In this document: positions 25,719 to 61,840 of the stretch, piece after piece
Position numbering within the stretch: position 1 is the first letter of the stretch
How the letters are laid out: each line of letters starts with the position of its first letter
Assembly: GCA_009908855.1 (NCBI GenBank)
Contig: JAAAOM010000012.1
Location: forward strand, 67,249-131,248
DNA: 64,000 bases
Source of the DNA: Bacteroidota bacterium
GTDB taxonomy: Bacteria; Bacteroidota; Bacteroidia; Bacteroidales; JAAAOM01
Direction: 5' to 3'
The notes under the pieces: model-generated
The model's input: only the letters and a program-made list of their open reading frames with translations
What the model was told of the DNA's origin: nothing
The model's database searches: none
Translations under genes and position numbers: made by a program

Positions 25719-27236
25719 TTAGCTTTCTTTATCCCATGAAGATTCACGTTTCTCGGCTTTTTTAATCCATTGGGGCACAACTTTTTCAAGAAATTCCTGC
25801 TTTTCCTCATTTAATTTCTCCATTTCCAGTCCAACAAATTCCTGCGCTTTTTCTTTGGTTGAAATATCAGGATACGGAACGGGTTCATTATGTCCGAGAT
25901 CAGCCAATACCCTTGCCAGCTTAATTCTTGCCTCCTGAATTTTAGTCATTCCGGTAGAAATTATTCTGCTTACCTCAACCGGTGCATGAAATGACCCGCC
26001 ATGACTGGCAGCGGCATAATCCCATCGCCATTGGGCATGACGAATATGTTGCAGTATCTCATTCATTTGGTTTTCTGTGGCGCCTAAATCCCATGCTTTT
26101 TTGGCTTCTACATGGGCATGGACAATTTGCTTTTCAAGTTCATCACGGTTTTGTATGATCTTATCCTGCCGCTCATAAACATCTGAAATTAGTTCATTGG
26201 CATCCTGACGATGGCATACCTGACATGAATTGGCCACATTGTTCAAGGGACTTTGGATATGATGATCGGTAAATTTCTGGCCACCTTCACTTTTGTAGGG
26301 CATGTGGCAATCGGCACAGGATACACCTCGCTTGGCATGCACGCTGGTTTGATACAATTCATATCCCGGGTGCTGCGCTTTAAGCATAGGTGCTTTACTT
26401 AAAGGATGTGTCCAGTCTTTGAAACCCATATTGTCATAATATTCTTCTGCAGCATCGACGGTCATGCCGTTATCCCACGGGAATTTTAAGTAAGGGACGC
26501 CTTTAACCATGTCTTTGTTGAAGTAATATTCAACGTGGCACTGTGCACATACCAACGACCGCATCTGTTGATGGGAAACCTGGTTAATGTCTTTATCCAT
26601 ATTGTCAAATGCTTCCAGTAAAGCAGGCCGTGTTATCTTAAGCTGCATGGTTTTCGGATCATGACAATCGGCACATCCGATGGCATTCACAATTTCGTCT
26701 CCATGTTCTTCCCAGCTTCCCTTGTAAAATTCTTCGGGAGAACCTAATTCATCGATTAAACGTGGAACATCCGGACTTTTACAGGTCCAGCAGGTATTGG
26801 GCATGGGACTTTCTTTATCACCTATAGGCGCCCCGGTGCGAAGCGTGTTACGTAAATCTTCAACGGCGTAATAGTGGCCGCGTGATTGGTTGTAATCTTT
26901 GGAAAAACCATATCCGGCCCACAGCACAACCAGTCGTGGGTCTTCTTCAAGCATATCAATCATGGATGAGCCATTATATTTACTTCTGAAAGAAGTATCC
27001 TTTGTTTCGATCAGGGATTGATACTGCCGCGGAAAATATTTACCCCATTCTTCATTTCGCGGTTCAATTCTGTCTTCAAATTCCAGCTCCGGTGAATAGG
27101 CAAAAACAGCTTCAGTACGACGTTCAACGATTGAACTGGCCAGTAAGCCGATTAAAAAAACGATGATCATGGTACCAATAAAAAGCAACCATCCGATAAT
27201 GGGTTTTTCTTTAATAATTTCTCGTACTGATTTCAT
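25719..27236 (-). CDS. nrfA: ammonia-forming cytochrome c nitrite reductase, pentaheme catalytic subunit
   Basis: Five heme motifs are present: CWTCK (the CXXCK active-site type), CADCH, CAQCH, CADCH and CQVCH. There is an N-terminal membrane anchor/signal. The gene directly follows nrfH. Confidence 0.9.
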   Translation of the reverse strand: MKSVREIIKEKPIIGWLLFIGTMIIVFLIGLLASSIVERRTEAVFAYSPELEFEDRIEPRNEEWGKYFPRQYQSLIETKDTSFRSKYNGSSMIDMLEEDPRLVVLWAGYGFSKDYNQSRGHYYAVEDLRNTLRTGAPIGDKESPMPNTCWTCKSPDVPRLIDELGSPEEFYKGSWEEHGDEIVNAIGCADCHDPKTMQLKITRPALLEAFDNMDKDINQVSHQQMRSLVCAQCHVEYYFNKDMVKGVPYLKFPWDNGMTVDAAEEYYDNMGFKDWTHPLSKAPMLKAQHPGYELYQTSVHAKRGVSCADCHMPYKSEGGQKFTDHHIQSPLNNVANSCQVCHRQDANELISDVYERQDKIIQNRDELEKQIVHAHVEAKKAWDLGATENQMNEILQHIRHAQWRWDYAAASHGGSFHAPVEVSRIISTGMTKIQEARIKLARVLADLGHNEPVPYPDISTKEKAQEFVGLEMEKLNEEKQEFLEKVVPQWIKKAEKRESSWDKES

Positions 27237-27238
27237 GG

Positions 27239-27832
27239 TTATTCTGATTTAAGATTTTTCATTTGCTCCTTAAGCCACTCCGGAACCGGTGATTCAGGTA
27301 AAGGCACGCGTGCATGCGGAACGCTCGATAAGCTATTGACACGCCCGTGAGGGACTTCACGATGGCAATCCCAACATTTTTTTTCGGTGCGCTGATGGTT
27401 AAAATGGGTATTATAGGTTGCCAGTTGATCGTCAACCAGCAGATTTTGATGGCATCGTACACAATTCTGTTGCACCACTTCCCTGCCTTCATCCCTTATG
27501 AATATAACCTGCGGCTCACGTCTCAATGTAAAAATGGTTGCATGCCGCATGCCGTCCTTAGCTTTGAAATAGTATTTGTTAATGATATTATCATGTGGCA
27601 CATGACAATCGTTACATGTGGCTACTTCTCGATGTGAACTATGACTCCACGTTGCATATTGCGGGGCCATGATATGACAATTCACACATGTCTCAGGCTC
27701 ATCAGACAAATATGAATGTGCTTTGGAAATATACACCAAATAAAAAACCATCCCCACGGCTATTGCTACCAGAAAGAAAACCGGTACAAACCATTTATCA
27801 GGAGGTATTAATTTTTTAAGCCGTTTAATCAT
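27239..27832 (-). CDS. nrfH: cytochrome c nitrite reductase small subunit, tetraheme NapC/NirT family
   Basis: An N-terminal TM helix is followed by four CXXCH motifs (CVNCH, CNDCH, CVRCH, CWDCH). Length is 197 aa. Confidence 0.9.
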   Translation of the reverse strand: MIKRLKKLIPPDKWFVPVFFLVAIAVGMVFYLVYISKAHSYLSDEPETCVNCHIMAPQYATWSHSSHREVATCNDCHVPHDNIINKYYFKAKDGMRHATIFTLRREPQVIFIRDEGREVVQQNCVRCHQNLLVDDQLATYNTHFNHQRTEKKCWDCHREVPHGRVNSLSSVPHARVPLPESPVPEWLKEQMKNLKSE

Positions 27833-28222: not shown

Positions 28223-29107
28223 TTAAATCCATTCTTCTTTTAAAATTTCTCCTTCTAAGCCCACAACGGTAAGTTTAACCGGCACTTTCCGTTGTGCCTG
28301 TTCAGCAGCGGACTTTACCAGTTGAAGCAATCCGCCGCAACAAGGCACCTGCATAATCATTACCTGTAAGGTATTTATCATCGCCTGATCGATCAATGCC
28401 ATAATTTTTTGCGCATACACTTCCTGGTTGCTGTCCAGTTTCGGGCAGGCAATAGCCAGGCTTTTGCCCGCGAGGTATTGGCTATGAAAATTACCCAGGG
28501 CATACGCCACACAGTCAGCAGCAATAAGTAAATCGCTTTGCCTGAAATAGGATGCATTCGGGCTTATTAAATGCAGCTGAACGGGCCACTGAGCCAACGC
28601 CGATGCCGGTACATTTTGCCGGGAATCCATAACAATACTTTCTGCTTTAGGTGTCAGGCTCCGGGCCTGAGAACCCGGACAACCGCCACCACCATGAGCA
28701 TGCCCATGTCCATTATTGTCCTTTGCATGCAGGGCATTTCGAATATCTTCCAGGGTAAAATCAAGTTCATTTTCGTGGTCAATAATGTAAGCGATACCTT
28801 CCTTCAGATAATCCCTTTCGTTGTGATCTTTTAAGTGTTTCAGATGCGCCACCACGGTATTTTTACCTTTCTGTGCCATCAATGCCATCACCTTGGTTTC
28901 GTTATAGGGCTCGGCCTCTCTTTTTTCAATGGTTATTGCTTCCTGCGGACAATGGCCGATGCATGCACCCAACCCATCGCATAATAAATCACTTATCAGT
29001 CGTGCTTTGCCGTCAATAATTTGCAATGCACCTTCATGGCAGCCTGGTACACATAAACCACAGCCATCACATTTATCTTCGTCTATTTTAACAACTTCAC
29101 GAATCAT
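28223..29107 (-). CDS. 4Fe-4S dicluster domain protein with a His/Gly-rich linker and a C-terminal CCGG motif
   Basis: The N-terminus has CDGCGLCVPGC and CDGLGACIGHCP, which are ferredoxin-type cluster motifs. The middle has NNGHGHAHGGGGCPGS and the C-terminal part has MQVPCCGGLL. Confidence 0.7.
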   Translation of the reverse strand: MIREVVKIDEDKCDGCGLCVPGCHEGALQIIDGKARLISDLLCDGLGACIGHCPQEAITIEKREAEPYNETKVMALMAQKGKNTVVAHLKHLKDHNERDYLKEGIAYIIDHENELDFTLEDIRNALHAKDNNGHGHAHGGGGCPGSQARSLTPKAESIVMDSRQNVPASALAQWPVQLHLISPNASYFRQSDLLIAADCVAYALGNFHSQYLAGKSLAIACPKLDSNQEVYAQKIMALIDQAMINTLQVMIMQVPCCGGLLQLVKSAAEQAQRKVPVKLTVVGLEGEILKEEWI

Positions 29108-29158: not shown

Positions 29159-29174
29159 TGTAACAAATGTTACA
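29159..29174. promoter_or_regulatory. perfect palindrome TGTAAC-AAAT-GTTACA, a candidate Crp/Fnr (HcpR-like) operator of the 4Fe-4S/cupin/nrfHA operon
   Basis: The 6-4-6 perfect inverted repeat lies 52-67 nt upstream of the ATG at 29107. On the minus strand, a TATATTAG box (one mismatch to TAnnTTTG) lies at 29137-29130, placing the palindrome centre roughly 40 nt upstream of a likely start site. Confidence 0.5.
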
Positions 29175-29194: not shown

Positions 29195-29280
29195 TCAAAA
29201 AGCCCCGCAGGTGGCGGGGCTTTCATTTAGATAAAACCTTAATATTACGAAATTTTGCTGTATAAAAAAGCTGTGTTATA
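29195..29280 (-). ncRNA. candidate small RNA, unit 1 of a tandem triplet
   Basis: It lies downstream of TGCAAC-N18-GTCT (29313-29286). It contains ACAGC...ACAGC and the core TTTCGTAATATTAAGGTTTTATCTAA. It ends in the hairpin AGCCCCGC/GCGGGGCT (29201-29221) followed by TTTTTG on the minus strand. Confidence 0.5.
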
Positions 29281-29285
29281 GTCAC

Positions 29286-29313
29286 AGACTAATTGGGGGT
29301 AAAAATAGTTGCA
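29286..29313 (-). promoter_or_regulatory. ECF-type promoter candidate (TGCAAC-N18-GTCT) for unit 1
   Basis: The minus strand reads TGCAACTATTTTTACCCCCAATTAGTCT. The spacing is identical to the motif upstream of the ECF sigma gene. Confidence 0.55.
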
Positions 29314-29403
29314 TCCATTATCAGTGCCAAATAATACGATGGTTAGTTACTCACATTTACCGGAAGTTTATTAACAATTTATGTCATTAGAATCTGTTAG
29401 GCA

Positions 29404-29498
29404 GGAAATAACACACCCCGAAATTTCTTTCGGGGTGCGAAGACAGTCTGTGACCTTAATATTATGAAACGCTGTAAGTATAAAGTTGGCTGTCTTAT
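29404..29498 (-). ncRNA. candidate small RNA, unit 2 of a tandem triplet
   Basis: It lies downstream of TGCAAC-N18-GTCT (29531-29504). It contains ACAGC...ACAGC and the core TTTCATAATATTAAGGT. It ends in the hairpin CACCCCGAAA/TTTCGGGGTG (29414-29437) followed by a weaker T-rich tail, TGTTATTTCC. Confidence 0.45.
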
Positions 29499-29503
29499 GT
29501 ATT

Positions 29504-29531
29504 AGACCAAAAATTAGGCCAAATGGTTGCA
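29504..29531 (-). promoter_or_regulatory. ECF-type promoter candidate (TGCAAC-N18-GTCT) for unit 2
   Basis: The minus strand reads TGCAACCATTTGGCCTAATTTTTGGTCT. It begins a few nt after the unit 3 terminator tail. Confidence 0.55.
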
Positions 29532-29537
29532 TAACTA

Positions 29538-29632
29538 ATAAAAAAGAAATGCCCCGTTTCACAACGGGGCATTTCACGTACTTAGATAAAACCTTAATAT
29601 TACGAAAAAGCTGTTTTTTATTTGCTGTCTAT
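29538..29632 (-). ncRNA. candidate small RNA, unit 3 of a tandem triplet
   Basis: It lies downstream of TGCAAC-N18-GTCT (29665-29638). It contains ACAGC...ACAGC and the core TTTCGTAATATTAAGGTTTTATCTAA. It ends in the hairpin ATGCCCCGTT/AACGGGGCAT (29549-29572) followed by TTTCTTTTTTATT on the minus strand. Confidence 0.55.
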
Positions 29633-29637
29633 AAGGT

Positions 29638-29665
29638 AGACAAGGATAAACTCAAAAAGGTTGCA
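29638..29665 (-). promoter_or_regulatory. ECF-type promoter candidate (TGCAAC-N18-GTCT) for unit 3
   Basis: The minus strand reads TGCAACCTTTTTGAGTTTATCCTTGTCT. It starts 27 nt after the anti-sigma stop codon. Confidence 0.55.
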
Positions 29666-29691
29666 CGGGAATAAAAAAGTTTATGATTTTT

Positions 29692-30870
29692 TTAATATCC
29701 GTAGATATCCCTGATGCCTTCATGCTTAACGGTAACCCGTCCATTTAAAGAAAATGGCTCTCCATTAACATATTTACCTTCCGCATGCCAAATATACTGA
29801 CCATTGGGTGCCAGTCGGCCATGTATATAACCATTCCATCCCTGATTAATATTATCAGTCCTGAAAACCTCCATCCCATTGGGTGCTTTAATGGTCAGTG
29901 AATATTCACTAACCCCGTTATACTGCGGATGAAAAATGGATTCCGGCCAGTCGGCTTTGTGATAGTATCCGTTATTTTGACGGCCCTGTGGACCGGGTAC
30001 AAAATTTTGCGGATAAGACAATCCATATTGCTCCTTAAGAAAATTGGCTGTTAACTCACTTGTATCCTTACAAGCATTTTCAGAAGTGGCTATTAATTTG
30101 ACATTATAAGACTGGTAATTGCTGTATTGATGTAAAGGTTCTTTTTCGCGGGATGATTGGCCATCACCAAATAACCATAAATATTCATCTGCATTTTTGG
30201 ATTTGTTTTCAAACTGAATGGTTTTTTGGGTATTGCTTGATTTTGCTTCATCGATTGAAAAACCGGCTTTGGGGCGACTATGTACGATCACCTCCCTGAC
30301 CTCCTGGTCTGCATTTCCGCTCACCGATATTGCCTGTAAACGAATTGTATGGGTCCCGGGTTCATTAAAAATATAGGTGGTGTTTGGTGAACTTATTTCT
30401 TCCTTCTCATCCAAATACCAGGTAATCGCTTTTGCATTATGGGATGTGTTTTTCAATTCAACTTTTAATGGAGCACATCCTGCCATAGCTGACATTGTAA
30501 ATTCAGCCTCCGGGGTTATAACCTCTTCTTCCGATTCATTTTTCCTGGATATAGGCTGTTCTTCCGCAGAATTTAATTCCGTTTTATTGGTAATATTTTT
30601 GCCGGCAGCCGCTTTTTCATGTTGAACCTCCACGGTATTGACCGGGGAATTTGATTCAGGTGAATTATTAGCTACAAAATATCCGGTTGAAACACCTGCC
30701 AGTAATAAAATGGTATAATAAATATTAAAATGGGAAAGTTTAAGGGAAAAGAAATCTCTTTTCCATAATTTTTTTCGAAGTCCTTTTAAAGCCCTTGTTG
30801 AAGGATTTACCTCATGTGCATCAAAGGCATTTTGGAAGAACTCCTCTATATTAAATGATTCCTTACTCAT
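29692..30870 (-). CDS. putative anti-sigma factor: short cytoplasmic N-terminus, one TM helix, PKD-like domains and a CHU_C/T9SS type B-like C-terminal domain
   Basis: It overlaps the ECF sigma gene by 8 nt. The TM helix is IYYTILLLAGVSTGYFV at about residue 50. The extracytoplasmic part has PKD-like repeats (FTMSAMAGCAPLKVELKNTS...; FENKSKNADEYLWLFGDG). The tail NGMEVFRTDNINQGWNGYIHGRLAPNGQYIWHAEG...GRVTVKH resembles the gliding-associated C-terminal domain. Confidence 0.65.
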   Translation of the reverse strand: MSKESFNIEEFFQNAFDAHEVNPSTRALKGLRKKLWKRDFFSLKLSHFNIYYTILLLAGVSTGYFVANNSPESNSPVNTVEVQHEKAAAGKNITNKTELNSAEEQPISRKNESEEEVITPEAEFTMSAMAGCAPLKVELKNTSHNAKAITWYLDEKEEISSPNTTYIFNEPGTHTIRLQAISVSGNADQEVREVIVHSRPKAGFSIDEAKSSNTQKTIQFENKSKNADEYLWLFGDGQSSREKEPLHQYSNYQSYNVKLIATSENACKDTSELTANFLKEQYGLSYPQNFVPGPQGRQNNGYYHKADWPESIFHPQYNGVSEYSLTIKAPNGMEVFRTDNINQGWNGYIHGRLAPNGQYIWHAEGKYVNGEPFSLNGRVTVKHEGIRDIYGY

Positions 30871-31408
30871 TTTCCCAATTCATTTTTTGCATTTGTTTAA
30901 CAACCCAGTTTTTTGCTCTTAAATACTGTGATTTAGAGGTGCTTTCATCAATATTCAATTTTTCAGCAATCTCTTTATGCTTATAACCTTCAACGGCATA
31001 AAGATTAAAAACCATTCGGTACCCTTCCGGCATTTGAGCCAATAAATCATGCAATTCTTTCACCGAATACTCGGTATCCGGTGTAATATTTATCTTCAAT
31101 TCCTCCTCTGTCATGTCCTCCACGTCCTGATGATGATAGTATTTTTTATTTTTATGATAATGGGTAATTGCGGTGTTAATCACAATTCTTTTCATCCATC
31201 CTTCAAAATTTCCTTTCCCGGTATAACTATCAATATTGTCGAATATCTTCAAAAATGCTTCCTGTAAAATATCTTCAGCTTCCGGTTTGCTCTCGGCATA
31301 GCGAATACAAACCCCCAACAGCAATGCCGCGTAATGCTCATACAAATACATTTGAGCTTTTCGCTTATTCTTCTTACATCCTTCTATGATCTTTTCAAGA
31401 TCAAACAT
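30863..31408 (-). CDS. ECF-subfamily RNA polymerase sigma-70 factor
   Basis: 181 aa. Region 2 is EAEDILQEAFLKIFDNIDSY...FEGWMKRIVINTAI. Region 4 is LAQMPEGYRMVFNLYAVEGYKHKEIAEKLNIDESTSKSQYLRAK. Confidence 0.9.
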   Translation of the reverse strand: MFDLEKIIEGCKKNKRKAQMYLYEHYAALLLGVCIRYAESKPEAEDILQEAFLKIFDNIDSYTGKGNFEGWMKRIVINTAITHYHKNKKYYHHQDVEDMTEEELKINITPDTEYSVKELHDLLAQMPEGYRMVFNLYAVEGYKHKEIAEKLNIDESTSKSQYLRAKNWVVKQMQKMNWENE

Positions 31409-31423
31409 TCCTTTCCGTTTTTA

Positions 31424-31451
31424 AGACTCGCAATTTGATAAAAAAGTTGCA
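31424..31451 (-). promoter_or_regulatory. candidate autoregulatory ECF promoter (TGCAAC-N18-GTCT)
   Basis: The minus strand reads TGCAACTTTTTTATCAAATTGCGAGTCT and ends 15 nt upstream of the sigma factor ATG at 31408. The AAC-containing -35 and GTC-containing -10 are the classical ECF layout. Confidence 0.6.
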
Positions 31452-31769
31452 TCGCTATCGAGAATAAAAATATAAATTTATTCCTTTCAGCCTGCGTGCA
31501 ATCAATATTATTGATTAACAATTGAATACCTGTATAGCCAAATGATAGAGGAACGGGAATTGGACACCGGGCATGGAGGTGCAGAGGGCTGAAATTGGAT
31601 TGGAGATTTAGGTTTCGGGTATTGCGTATTTAAATGTAAATAAACATGCAACTTTAATAAGAAAAATCAGGTTATCCGGAACATCGTAAATTATATATTC
31701 CCATTAATGCATGTAATATATGCATAGATAAATTCAATTTCTGTATATTTCTAAAAACATTTTTTAATT

Positions 31770-32444
31770 ATGAACCAAACCCTTCAAGATATTCTTCAAA
31801 ATGCACTTTTTCAGGGTTTTACTTATAGTGAGCTGGAGCCGTTGATGCAACAGATCAATTACCAGGTTATACAATTTGAAAAGGGCGATGTGCTGGTACA
31901 ATCAGGTGATTCCTGCGATTACTTATTGCTGCTCACACGGGGAAGTGTGAGTGGCGACATGATGGATTTCAGCGGTAAAACCCTGAAAATTGAAGATGTA
32001 CATGCAGGAAAACCTCTGGCAATCGCTTTTATTTTTGGTAAACAACATACATTCCCGGTAACTTTAACAGCCAATGAACATGTAAAGGCAGTTCGCATTT
32101 GGCGTGATGATTTGCTCAAGCTCATGCAACTGAACAGGAAATTTTTACATAATTACCTGAACCTAATTAGCAACAAAGCACAATTCCTCTCTGAAAAGCT
32201 TCATTTTCTTTCATTTAAAACCATTCGGGAAAAATACGCGCATTTCCTGCTTAAATACTATCCCGACGCAAATATAAACCCGGTCAGGATAAAAGAATCT
32301 CAACAACAAATGGCTGATTTATTTGGTGTTACGCGACCATCACTGGCCCGGGTAATGGCTGAATTTGAAGATGAAAAAATTATTTCCGTCAGGAAAAAAC
32401 AGCTAACCATTCTTAATATGGACCAGTTACAAGGGATGACCTGA
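31770..32444 (+). CDS. Crp/Fnr-family transcriptional regulator
   Basis: 224 aa. It has an N-terminal cNMP-binding-like beta-barrel (FEKGDVLVQSGDSCDYLLLLTRGSV) and a C-terminal HTH (QQQMADLFGVTRPSLARVMAEFEDEKII). Confidence 0.85.
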   Translation: MNQTLQDILQNALFQGFTYSELEPLMQQINYQVIQFEKGDVLVQSGDSCDYLLLLTRGSVSGDMMDFSGKTLKIEDVHAGKPLAIAFIFGKQHTFPVTLTANEHVKAVRIWRDDLLKLMQLNRKFLHNYLNLISNKAQFLSEKLHFLSFKTIREKYAHFLLKYYPDANINPVRIKESQQQMADLFGVTRPSLARVMAEFEDEKIISVRKKQLTILNMDQLQGMT

Positions 32445-44150: not shown

Positions 44151-45788
44151 TTAATTTAACTGTCCCTGCTTATAATTATAGATATCCTGGTAAAAAACCA
44201 GGTTTTCATTTTCGTCAACACCGCATAAATTGTAGGTTATATAAATTTTTACAGGATTTCTAAGATTAATAAATTCCCTCGAATTGCTTAAAAGCCTGGT
44301 TTTGTGGTGCGGGTCTTCATCCTGTGTAAGTTGCAAAAGATCATCGGCAAAATGCATCGGGTTTTGTACTCTTACACAACCGTGTGAATAAGCCCGGTAT
44401 TGATGATTAAACTGTGCTTTGCTGGGTGTATCATGCAAATATACACTGTATGGATTGTCGAATAAAAATTTAATTTTTCCCAGGGCATTACCATCGAATG
44501 ATTCCTGACGGAATTTATAATTAAAATTCCGGTAAGTGACATTGTTAAAATCAATTTGGTCAACATCCACTTCATTAAAATCGTGATCGATTAATTTAAA
44601 CCCATTTCTGGACAAATAGGTTGAATCCCTTTGAATTTTAGGGATTAACTCATTCATTGCGATTTTTTTCGGAACGGTCCAATATGGATTGGTTACGATG
44701 GTGGAGATATCACTTTCCAGCATTGGTGTGGGGGATGTTTTTTTCCCTACTATTACATTGTAATTTTTTACTATGCTGTTATTGTTAATGAGCTTAAGCG
44801 AAAAAGAAGGTATATTAACAAAAACACAGGTGTTTTGCATACCAGGTTTCTTACGGTAGAAATCAAGGTTATTGGCCACCCTGTCAAAAAGCTCGTAAGT
44901 GCTTTTATTTAATTGGTTTATCGTTTTTTTGGTTAACAATCCGTTTGGTTTAATGGAATGAATTTGCTGATATTTTTTAAGTGCATTCCTGTAAATAGTA
45001 TCATTTTTAATGTTGGCGGAATCGAGCAATCCCTGGTGATACAATACAATAGTGATTGATTTTTTAGCCGAATCTTCGTTATTTATCGGAAATGTAAGTC
45101 CATTTGTTGATTGATCCAGTCCTGTATTTTGAATAAATTTTTTATTGGCTGCCTGCAATCTCTGGTATTCAATAAATTGAGGTTGTACTGATAAGACCAT
45201 CCGTTTAAAATCGCCCTGAATGGCCAGGTGTAATTTTTCGATTAAATAATGACTTTCCGCTGCCGATAATTGTAAAGTGTCAAAATGCACCTTACCCCAT
45301 TTTAGATTGATAAGAAAGCGCAGACTCATTTCTGTCATTAAATATTCATATTCAAAACGATTTTCAATAATTTTTTTATAGTCCTGCGATTCTTTCAATT
45401 GCTCCATGCTAATCTTTAATCCTGATACGGCATATAAATCTTTTCTGAACCCATAATATTCAGCATGGTTTAACAATTGCATTAAAATTTGTGCCCTATT
45501 ATTTATTTCCGTTTCAAAGGTCCATACCGGTTTATAATTGACTTCGTAATAAAAGGCTGATACCAAATGTTTTATTTTTCCGAAACCGGTTGAATCATTC
45601 ATAATTGGCGAGAACTGTTGATTAAGAAGCAATTGCGTTTCGGGCAGGAAGAAATCGTTATATTCCTCTTTATTCAAAGGGTTCTGATAACTACTTAGCA
45701 ACAATATCCCAAAAAATAGCGCGGCAACTGCAATTTTTTGAAATCCCTTTTTATAAATCTCTTTTTTTCTAAATTTTTGTGGTGACAT
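44151..45788 (-). CDS. L,D-transpeptidase (YkuD) family protein
   Basis: The C-terminal catalytic region is YLHDTPSKAQFNHQYRAYSHGCVRVQNP. There is an N-terminal membrane anchor. Length is 545 aa. Confidence 0.8.
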   Translation of the reverse strand: MSPQKFRKKEIYKKGFQKIAVAALFFGILLLSSYQNPLNKEEYNDFFLPETQLLLNQQFSPIMNDSTGFGKIKHLVSAFYYEVNYKPVWTFETEINNRAQILMQLLNHAEYYGFRKDLYAVSGLKISMEQLKESQDYKKIIENRFEYEYLMTEMSLRFLINLKWGKVHFDTLQLSAAESHYLIEKLHLAIQGDFKRMVLSVQPQFIEYQRLQAANKKFIQNTGLDQSTNGLTFPINNEDSAKKSITIVLYHQGLLDSANIKNDTIYRNALKKYQQIHSIKPNGLLTKKTINQLNKSTYELFDRVANNLDFYRKKPGMQNTCVFVNIPSFSLKLINNNSIVKNYNVIVGKKTSPTPMLESDISTIVTNPYWTVPKKIAMNELIPKIQRDSTYLSRNGFKLIDHDFNEVDVDQIDFNNVTYRNFNYKFRQESFDGNALGKIKFLFDNPYSVYLHDTPSKAQFNHQYRAYSHGCVRVQNPMHFADDLLQLTQDEDPHHKTRLLSNSREFINLRNPVKIYITYNLCGVDENENLVFYQDIYNYKQGQLN

Positions 45789-59969: not shown

Positions 59970-60965
59970 ATGATCATCGAATCAAGGGCATTCGCGCGTG
60001 CCGGGTTATTAGGAAATCCTTCTGACGGTTACTTTGGAAAAACAATATCAGTTATCATCCGTAATTTTGGCGCACGGATATCGTTATACGAAACACCTGA
60101 GCTGGAAATAGAAGAACAGGAAGTGGACCGCAATAAATTCCGAAATGTTTACCAATTGCTCGATAGTGTAAAGCAAACAGGATATTACGGCGGCTCCAGG
60201 CTGGTGAAAGCAACCATTAAGAAATTCACTGAATACTGCGAGCATAACCAAATTAAGCTGGGCAATAAGAATTTTACCGTCCGTTATCAGTCGTCTATTC
60301 CCCGGCAGGTTGGACTGGCCGGTTCAAGTGCCATTGTAACAGCCACCATGCGTGCACTGATGCGGTTTTATAACATTCAAATTCCCAATGAAATCTTACC
60401 GGGTCTGTGCCTGGAAGTAGAAACACAGGAACTGGGTATCAATGCCGGTTTACAAGACCGGGTAATTCAGGCTTATGAAGGATGTGTGTATATGGATTTT
60501 GACAAAAACTATTTCAACAAACACGGCTACGGCAAATATATACCGCTGGACCCAAATAAGCTGCCAAAATTATACCTGGCCTATAAAACACAATTGAGCA
60601 AAGTATCCGGACAAGTTTTGAATAACATCCGCGAACGTTACGAAGCCGGCGATTCTGAAACCATCGATACCCTGCATGAAATTGCCTCGCTCGCCGATGA
60701 AGGTAAAAAAGCCATTGAAAACGGTAATTATGCATCATTGAACAAGCTCATTAATAAGAATTTCGATTTACGCTGCAAGATTATGAACATATCCGAAAGC
60801 AACCATGAGCTGGTTATGACAGCCAGGAACTGCGGAGCCTCGGCCAAATTTTCCGGTTCCGGCGGCGCAATCATCGGTATTTATGAAGATGATGAAATGC
60901 TGCAAAAACTAATCGTCAACCTGAAGAAAATTAATGCAAGAGTTATAAAACCTTATATGATATAA
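59970..60965 (+). CDS. GHMP-family sugar-1-kinase resembling plant-type glucuronokinase
   Basis: SRAFARAGLLGNPSDGYFGKTISVIIRNF, GYYGGSRL, the GHMP motif SIPRQVGLAGSSAIV, GINAGLQDRVIQAYEGCVYMDF and KFSGSGGA are present. As far as I recall the Arabidopsis glucuronokinase sequence, these blocks match it closely. Confidence 0.65.
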   Translation: MIIESRAFARAGLLGNPSDGYFGKTISVIIRNFGARISLYETPELEIEEQEVDRNKFRNVYQLLDSVKQTGYYGGSRLVKATIKKFTEYCEHNQIKLGNKNFTVRYQSSIPRQVGLAGSSAIVTATMRALMRFYNIQIPNEILPGLCLEVETQELGINAGLQDRVIQAYEGCVYMDFDKNYFNKHGYGKYIPLDPNKLPKLYLAYKTQLSKVSGQVLNNIRERYEAGDSETIDTLHEIASLADEGKKAIENGNYASLNKLINKNFDLRCKIMNISESNHELVMTARNCGASAKFSGSGGAIIGIYEDDEMLQKLIVNLKKINARVIKPYMI

Positions 60966-60970
60966 ATGTT

Positions 60971-61840
60971 ATGGTAAAAAAAGCTGTTATTCCCGCCGCA
61001 GGATTTGGGACCCGGTTCCTTCCGGCCACCAAAGCCCAACCAAAAGAAATGTTACCAATTATCGATACACCAACCATTCAGTACGTAGTGCAGGAATGTG
61101 TGGACTCCGGAATTGAAGATATCCTCATTATCACCGGTCGCGGTAAACGAAGCATCGAGGATCATTTCGACCGCAATACCGAACTGGAATCACGCATCAA
61201 AGAAAAAGAAGACGAAACATTGTACAATCAAATCCGACACATTGAGGATATGGCAAACATTCACTACATCCGTCAAAAAGAATTAAACGGACTGGGTGAT
61301 GCCATTTACTATGCGAAGGATCATTGCGGACATGAACCTTTTGCAGTGCTGCTGGGCGATACAATCATCAATTCGGTTATACCGGTTACCCAGCAAATGA
61401 TTGATACCTTCGAGCAATACCACCAAACCATTATAGCCGTTGAAACAGTACCGCGCGATAAGGTATCGCGATATGGAATTGTTGGCGGAGAAAAGATCAG
61501 CGACCACCTGATGCAGCTAAACGAACTGGTTGAAAAGCCCGATGTCGATAAATCCCCTTCAAACTGGGCTATTGCCGGCCGTTATATCCTGACTCCCGAA
61601 ATATTTGATGCCATTGAAAAAACACCCCGCGGGAAAGGGAATGAGATACAATTAACCGATGCATTGCGTTTGCTTATGAAGCATGAAAACCTGATGGCAT
61701 TATCGATTGAAGGCCAACGTTACGACATTGGTAACAAGCTCGATTATCTTAAAACCACCGTTGAATTTGCCTTGCGACGGAAAGAATTTGCCGGCCCTTT
61801 TGCTGATTTTCTTAAAGAAACAGTTAATAATATGAAGTAA
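60971..61840 (+). CDS. galU: UTP--glucose-1-phosphate uridylyltransferase (GalU-type sugar-1-phosphate nucleotidyltransferase)
   Basis: KAVIPAAGFGTRFLPATKAQPKEMLPIIDTPTIQYVVQE and LGDTI...VEKP are present. Length is 289 aa. It starts 5 nt after the kinase gene. Confidence 0.85.
   Translation: MVKKAVIPAAGFGTRFLPATKAQPKEMLPIIDTPTIQYVVQECVDSGIEDILIITGRGKRSIEDHFDRNTELESRIKEKEDETLYNQIRHIEDMANIHYIRQKELNGLGDAIYYAKDHCGHEPFAVLLGDTIINSVIPVTQQMIDTFEQYHQTIIAVETVPRDKVSRYGIVGGEKISDHLMQLNELVEKPDVDKSPSNWAIAGRYILTPEIFDAIEKTPRGKGNEIQLTDALRLLMKHENLMALSIEGQRYDIGNKLDYLKTTVEFALRRKEFAGPFADFLKETVNNMK

Follow-up and report, generated by a model that had tools for sequence, protein, structure and literature searches.

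The noncoding arm of the envelope stress response has been described for the sigma-E small RNAs (sRNAs) MicA, RybB and MicL of Escherichia coli and Salmonella and for VrrA and MicV of Vibrio (PMC11005410). FoxI and FoxJ (~156 nt) of Fusobacterium nucleatum are experimentally validated sigma-E-dependent sRNAs (PMC11005410). The only Bacteroidota precedent found in the literature comes from Flavobacterium psychrophilum, where the motif SM6, of the extracytoplasmic function (ECF) type, was predicted ahead of the sRNA candidate Rfp11, of an ECF sigma/anti-sigma pair and of genes for type IX secretion (T9SS); Rfp11 (at 182564) and the pair (at 2057098) lie far apart, and the responsible sigma factor was not assigned (PMC9723704). 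The dCas12f-sigma-E systems of Bacteroidetes need dCas12f and guide RNAs and work without promoter motifs (PMC13472631). No Bacteroidota ECF sigma factor with an experimentally defined sRNA output was found in the literature. The sRNA biology of this phylum is a young field. Here we describe a 64,000-nt stretch of contig JAAAOM010000012.1 (positions 67,249 to 131,248, forward strand; assembly GCA_009908855.1) of a Bacteroidales bacterium, referred to as the window, in which an ECF sigma gene and three sRNA-like units behind its operon are preceded by the same bipartite motif, TGCAAC-N18-GTCT. The locus is probably a new example of the known scheme in which an ECF sigma factor also switches on regulatory RNAs. 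It comprises the following features.

31424 to 31451, minus strand: putative autoregulatory ECF-type promoter of the sigma operon (TGCAAC-N18-GTCT), with an equivalent motif upstream of orthologous sigma genes.
30863 to 31408, minus strand: ECF (group IV) sigma-70 family factor, 181 aa, with Pfam Sigma70_r2 and Sigma70_r4_2 and NCBIfam TIGR02937.
29692 to 30870, minus strand: putative anti-sigma factor/sensor, 392 aa, a single-pass membrane protein with two PKD domains.
29638 to 29665, minus strand: predicted promoter of sRNA-like unit 1 (TGCAAC-N18-GTCT), with the same position and motif in the related loci L073, L074, L075 and L076.
29540 to 29631, minus strand: predicted sRNA 1, ~91 nt, with 5' end TAGACAGC, core at 29591-29607 (TTTCGTAATATTAAGGT) and, ahead of a U-run, a terminator hairpin at 29546-29575.
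29504 to 29531, minus strand: predicted promoter of sRNA-like unit 2 (TGCAAC-N18-GTCT).
29405 to 29497, minus strand: predicted sRNA 2, ~92 nt, with core TTTCATAATATTAAGGT at 29453-29469 and a terminator at 29412-29439 with a weaker U-run.
29286 to 29313, minus strand: predicted promoter of sRNA-like unit 3 (TGCAAC-N18-GTCT).
29196 to 29279, minus strand: predicted sRNA 3, ~84 nt, with core TTTCGTAATATTAAGGT at 29236-29252 and a terminator at ~29198-29223.

The units resemble MicA, RybB and MicL in that an ECF sigma factor is kept in check by an anti-sigma factor in the membrane (a putative one here), the promoters match the consensus of the sigma factor itself and several short, terminator-ended sRNAs belong to one response (PMC11005410), here as judged by sequence. 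They differ from these sRNAs in having no sequence or Rfam similarity to them and in belonging to another phylum. Unlike in the sigma-E systems, the sRNA genes form a cassette right behind the sigma/anti-sigma operon, and the partner protein is PKD/CHU_C-like rather than RseA. The MicL promoter is embedded in the 3' end of a different gene; comparably, the unit-1 promoter in the window directly adjoins the stop codon of the gene upstream. To our knowledge, Bacteroidota lack Hfq and ProQ. The presence of multiple sRNAs and the sigma-E-plus-sRNA principle outside the Proteobacteria are shared with FoxI and FoxJ, whereas the window sRNAs are unrelated to these in sequence and are smaller; a placement of the FoxI and FoxJ genes behind the sigma operon is not known from PMC11005410. 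SM6 has an ECF-type CGT box at -10, unlike the GTC-type -10 element of the window motif, and the comparison with Rfp11 is by description only (PMC9723704). The linkage of a Bacteroidota ECF sigma gene to small RNA genes recalls the dCas12f-sigma-E systems (PMC13472631), and a strict promoter motif is central at the window locus, unlike in those systems. Identity with a dCas12f-sigma-E system was rejected: no Cas12f-like open reading frame (ORF) adjoins the sigma gene, and the ORFs that flank it encode the PKD membrane protein and a Crp/Fnr-family regulator.

In a search of the whole window against Rfam 15, no family attained its gathering score, and the matches at E<=10 are weak, terminator-driven and do not represent homology. 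The best sub-threshold match is BTnc231 (RF04180), an intergenic sRNA of Bacteroides thetaiotaomicron with its own transcription start site and terminator. Membership in this family was rejected: unit 1 scores 33.1 bits against a gathering score of 80.4, in an alignment that covers mostly the terminator hairpin and skips 45 model positions, and units 2 and 3 have no match. By their sequences, the units are a new family of predicted sRNAs within the known class of ECF sigma-dependent sRNAs. Four points stand out: the phylum, the linkage to the sigma operon as a cassette, a copy number that varies and the unusual sensor protein.

A scan of the whole 64-kb window found four exact copies of TGCAAC-N18-GTCT, all on the minus strand, compared with a chance mean of 0.05 per window; none of 100 dinucleotide-preserving shuffles reached four copies. 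The shortened pattern CAAC-N18-GTCT returned the same four sites and nothing more, GCAAC-N17-19-GTC added one site (42195, plus strand), and allowing one mismatch in the full motif added two, which is within chance. The bare TGCAAC hexamer occurs 36 times. The first-pass annotation of this DNA had reported the four sites, with an identical hexamer, tetramer and spacing before the sigma gene and the three units, and had seen no further exact copies by eye; its coordinates and sequences are all correct, and the exact-pattern scan of the full window bears out the identity of the elements and the lack of additional copies. In classical ECF promoters, the -35 element contains AAC and continues into a T-rich stretch on its 3' side, and the -10 element is of the GTC type; the motif fits this layout. 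The CGT box of SM6 is a comparable element of the ECF type (PMC9723704). The copy at 31424-31451 is separated by 15 nt from the sigma ATG at 31408, so that the leader of the sigma operon would be very short. The unit-1 promoter begins 26 nt past the stop codon of the putative anti-sigma gene. The housekeeping sigma-A box of Bacteroidota is TAnnTTTG (PMC7366714), and a reading of the unit sequences revealed no consistent match to this box in the sRNA-like units.

A weaker fifth site, TGCAAC-N18-GTTA, lies on the plus strand at 31647-31674, ~95 nt upstream of the divergent Crp/Fnr-family gene (31770-32444), and its -10 variant is that of the L074 sigma promoter. The site may be due to chance, given three non-core TGCAAC-N18-GT matches in the window vs. 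~2 expected.

All three units have the same makeup: the motif comes first, then an AU-rich body, then a GC-rich hairpin that has a T-run. The common core TTTCRTAATATTAAGGT occurs three times in the window against 0.09 expected, once behind each promoter, and the bodies open with (T)AGACAGC (ACACAGC in unit 3) at a fixed distance past GTCT. Counted from ~7 nt past GTCT, the predicted RNAs are 84-92 nt long. The z-scores of their folds relative to shuffled sequences are -3.9, -5.2 and -3.6 for sRNAs 1, 2 and 3, respectively; the terminators supply most of this signal, and the core is largely unpaired. The 5' end of sRNA 2 pairs with the stretch just ahead of its terminator. The terminators of units 1 and 2 were also listed by a terminator scan. 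Between the partner stop codon (29692-29694) and the unit-1 promoter there is no terminator, so read-through from the operon should end at the unit-1 terminator, and unit 1 can thereby double as the 3' untranslated region (UTR) of the operon. Reading of the sequences found no conserved reading frame across the units. Their short ATG frames differ from one another and sit inside the terminators, which makes the units look non-coding.

For comparison, 12 related loci, all non-redundant, were analysed with their flanking DNA (79 kb). Nine copies of TGCAAC-N18-GTC[TC] are present in this DNA against 0.14 expected, all on the sigma strand, with seven ahead of sRNA-like units and two ahead of sigma genes. 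TGCAAC-N18-GTCT (once GTCC) stands shortly past the orthologous PKD gene in seven lineages and is followed there by an sRNA-like unit. The units at individual loci are as follows.

L073: two sRNA-like units.
L074: one sRNA-like unit.
L075 and L076: at least one unit each; both contigs end within the unit.
L078: one unit, ~310 nt downstream of the PKD-gene stop codon.
L085 to L088: one unit; the four loci represent one widespread species.

Including the window, the cassette occurs in 8 of 13 lineages, with a copy number of 1 to 3 where present; the triplet is peculiar to the window genome, and the relatives have 0 to 2 units. The earlier proposal that the sigma factor drives itself and a triplet of sRNAs gains support from the motif conserved before related sigma genes and from the syntenic units, whereas the triplet as such is confined to the window genome. 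In a check of orthologous loci for the motif and downstream units, seven lineages carry both, and five have no adjacent unit in the available flanks. Alignment of 17 sites gave the consensus (a/g)TGCAAC-yWTTT-...-GTCT with an invariant 18-nt spacing and a spacer sequence that is not conserved. Fixed elements at a fixed spacing around a free spacer are the footprint expected of a promoter. A TAG stands at +7 to +9 past the -10 element in eight of the nine aligned sRNA units, and the complete units all have an AU-rich body and a strong terminator. At L085-L088, a terminator follows the PKD gene ahead of the motif and the sRNA unit; it follows that the sRNA at these loci must be transcribed independently, from its own promoter.

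Comparison of window unit 1 with the L076 unit showed that all 48 aligned nucleotides are identical, with two short indels, while the gene adjoining the L076 unit has 63% nucleotide and 47% amino acid identity with its window counterpart. On this sequence analysis, the sRNA body is under purifying selection, with a constraint much stronger than that on its surroundings. L073 unit 2 and the L078 and L085 units retain AGACAGC at the 5' end, together with a related core (GTAATCAAAGG or GTAATCAATGG). L073 unit 1 and the L074 unit begin with TAGGAATTT and have only TATATCAAAGRAA in common with the other units; as judged from these stretches, their homology to the other units is probable, though weaker than for the rest. 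A sequence model built on six units (R1) recovered the left-out L076 unit with E = 1.5e-6 and found no further units in the window, L082, L083, L079, L080, L001 or L077. The remainder of the window and 270 kb of related loci contain no copies of the units, and the core motif is absent from the 60 genome loci retrieved via the sigma protein. RNAalifold on a MAFFT alignment of the units gave no consensus pairs, as the terminators are dissimilar in sequence and fail to align.

Two sets of additional matches were rejected as chance. The R1 match at 44708-44779 sits within a 545-aa ORF, and the 11 matches of a metagenome search with CAGC-N0-8-TTTCRTAATATTAAGGT have no promoter and no terminator and stand in unrelated contexts. 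The L077 contig ends 290 nt past the stop codon, too early to be scored for a unit; tandem 7-nt repeats (GATGTTG / GATGCTA) lie at ~4146-4225 of L077, right after the PKD gene and at the position of the sRNA unit in other lineages.

TGCAAC and the 18-nt spacing are found before the sigma gene in every clade member, and the five lineages with no adjacent unit still carry the motif there. The -10 element of the sRNA promoters is always GTCT or GTCC, and its difference from the -10 variants of sigma promoters in relatives suggests that the sRNA promoters are stronger. More distant sigma relatives (30-53% identity) have xCAACC-N17-(G/A)(T/A)CT ~60 nt upstream of the sigma gene and lack additional motif copies in the vicinity. 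This shows that an upstream promoter of such a type is ancient in the wider family. Before its sigma gene, L080 carries two sites in tandem, TGCAAC-N18-GTCA and AGCAAC-N18-GTCT.

The sigma protein contains only Sigma70_r2 (2e-16) and Sigma70_r4_2 (3e-16) in the Pfam search and matches TIGR02937 with 96.3 bits (cutoff 42.9), which confirms its earlier assignment as an ECF factor. It has 2487 homologues at E<=1e-30. Among the 119 non-self matches listed, the identity is 60-70%, and the few source-named ones come from Bacteroidales metagenome-assembled genomes. The start of the partner gene overlaps the sigma stop codon by 8 nt, and the two genes are translationally coupled. The partner has a conserved cytoplasmic N-terminus (~45 aa), followed by a single transmembrane helix, a linker that varies, a pair of PKD domains and a C-terminal domain that is again conserved. 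Homologues of this PKD protein are few and divergent (29-47% identity). The pairing of the sigma factor with a single-pass membrane protein is seen in 11 of 11 related lineages with a readable region downstream of the sigma gene. The C-terminal ~100 aa (29695-30003, minus strand) resemble Pfam CHU_C, a T9SS type-B sorting domain, with E = 0.017; CHU_C matches are present in eight of nine members of the partner family, the best with 1.3e-8. It is unusual to see such a domain on a sigma partner anchored in the inner membrane, and its presence hints at a connection with the cell surface or type IX secretion. The main text of the ECF re-classification paper has no mention of 'PKD' or of PKD-type partners. 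At L079 (6495-8211), the sigma/PKD pair is followed by PorP_SprF and OmpH genes.

These observations can be combined into a mechanism. The membrane-anchored PKD/CHU_C-like partner, as a putative anti-sigma factor, would release the sigma factor, and RNA polymerase with the released sigma would recognise TGCAAC (-35)-N18-GTCT (-10). Transcription of the sigma/anti-sigma operon from its very short leader would result in positive autoregulation, and the same sigma would transcribe the three paralogous non-coding RNAs (84-92 nt) encoded immediately downstream. Each sRNA would start ~7-8 nt past GTCT at the conserved TAG and end at its own intrinsic terminator. The sRNAs would expose the conserved AU-rich core UAAUAUUAAGG (UAAUCAAAGG in relatives), most likely for base-pairing with mRNAs, and a sigma factor that can only activate would thereby gain a repressing noncoding arm, as in the sigma-E systems of Proteobacteria and Fusobacteria. 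The specificity and conservation of the motif, the synteny, the terminators and the purifying selection on the RNA body are demonstrated by sequence analysis, and from there we infer the match between sigma and motif, the transcription start sites, action in trans, the targets and the signal that induces the module. We consider it fairly likely that the whole chain holds, i.e. that the motif is a promoter, that the adjacent sigma reads it and that the products are trans-acting sRNAs. A more specific reading, in which the module monitors the surface or type IX secretion, couples their status to sigma release and has the adjacent sRNA cassette as its principal and best-conserved output, with promoters closer to the consensus than that of the sigma gene in most relatives, is rather doubtful. 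If it were true, the locus would be the first ECF noncoding arm in the Hfq-less Bacteroidota, and its anti-sigma sensor would be of a type without precedent.

When duplexes with every ORF start region of the window were predicted, a galU-like gene (60971-61840) ranked first, with -23.3 kcal/mol. Within its start region (60945-60987, plus strand), 9-10-nt blocks, CAGCUUUUU and AAGGUUUUAU, which are complementary to sRNA units 1 and 3, pair on either side of the start codon, and the R1 model matches the antisense strand of this site with a rough E of ~0.02. The galU start region may be regarded as a lead only for an sRNA target.

Several findings weigh against the proposed mechanism. The transcription start sites and the sigma dependence are predictions from sequence. 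The motif is invariant within the sRNA-bearing clade and offers no co-variation of sigma and promoter to compare. The -10 element of the sigma gene itself is GTAA, GTTA or GTGT in L073, L074, L077, L078, L082, L083 and L085, which would make autoregulation weaker or less certain outside the window, L079, L001 and L080. No adjacent unit is present in the available flanks of L082, L083/84, L079, L080/81 and L001, indicating that the linkage of sigma and sRNAs is frequent but not obligatory; L082 has the closest sigma among the matches listed (70% identical) and also shares the upstream Crp and ArsC neighbours. The Pfam and NCBIfam searches detected no known anti-sigma domain in the partner, and the anti-sigma label consequently derives from synteny and topology only. 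Of the earlier assignment of an anti-sigma gene behind the sigma gene, the coupled single-pass membrane protein and the constant pairing stand, whereas a recognised anti-sigma domain is missing. The galU duplex is not significant (63 of 200 shuffled seeds are equal or better), and no significant mRNA target was found in the window. Finally, the -10 element and the predicted +1 both fall inside the span of an inverted repeat, GTCT-N7/8-AGAC.

Within the window, this repeat is located at 29627-29641 and 29492-29507; it also occurs in the sRNA promoters of L073, L075, L076 and L085. It is present in six of seven complete type-A units and also in the truncated L075 and L076 units; unit 3 carries CTGTG-N7-CACAG in its place. 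The repeat may be a coincidence or a regulatory or processing hairpin.

The motif could be a genuine ECF-type promoter that is read by one or more paralogous ECF sigma factors, in which case the sRNAs would not be the dedicated output of the adjacent sigma. Bacteroidota have many ECF sigmas, whose promoter specificities are known or suspected to overlap (PMC9723704; PMC13472631), and in most relatives the sigma -10 (GTAA, GTTA or GTGT) is unlike the GTCT of the sRNAs. However, the sRNA units stay linked to the same sigma/partner pair in eight lineages, TGCAAC with the same 18-nt spacing precedes the sigma gene across the clade, and both elements are identical at all four window sites; reading by a paralogous sigma is judged unlikely. 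Even less probable is that the units are 3'-UTR, terminator or processing modules, with TGCAAC...GTCT...AGAC as an RNA-level or protein-binding element instead of a promoter. Such modules would fit the position of unit 1 in the window and L073-L076, directly after the stop codon with no terminator between, and the inverted repeat in six of seven complete type-A units could form a small hairpin in the read-through RNA. However, the motif also occurs upstream of the sigma gene, where the divergent intergenic region is untranscribed, strong terminators precede units 2 and 3, a terminator stands ahead of the sole L085 unit, the L078 unit is ~310 nt past the stop codon, and the spacer between the elements is neither conserved nor paired.

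Short ORFs overlap the region and the three window units are paralogues, so that their similarity alone is not independent evidence; the units might then encode small proteins, or be a repeated or mobile element whose similarity results from recent duplication and which has no regulatory role. The short ATG frames within the terminators, different in each unit, speak against peptides. Syntenic units occur in lineages whose neighbouring protein is only 37-47% identical, there are no copies elsewhere in the window or in the 270 kb of related loci, and the conserved parts (-35, -10, 5' end, core and terminator) have the pattern of a transcription unit. This explanation is considered highly improbable.

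With the adjacent sigma factor as the likely reader of the motif, the locus is a compact regulon candidate of one sigma, one putative sensor and one to three sRNAs with a specific 10-nt bipartite motif, in a locus type that many uncultured Bacteroidales have conserved. The gains are a consensus for the promoters of a widespread sigma clade (the 2487 homologues above), an sRNA family absent from Rfam, and a handle on whether the sigma-E-plus-sRNA principle of Proteobacteria and Fusobacteria extends to a third phylum.

Next to the cassette, a perfect palindrome, TGTAAC-N4-GTTACA, is located at 29159-29174, ~52 nt upstream of a 4Fe-4S protein gene (28223-29107, minus strand), and a one-mismatch copy is found at 310-325. 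By its sequence, the palindrome at 29159-29174 could be a candidate binding site of a Crp/Fnr-type regulator. Two CXXCH-rich multi-haem ORFs of 505 and 197 aa at 25719-27832 (minus strand) resemble, by eye from their translations, an nrfA/nrfH-like nitrite reductase pair. Together, the multi-haem, cupin, Fe-S and Crp/Fnr genes suggest an anaerobic respiratory neighbourhood.

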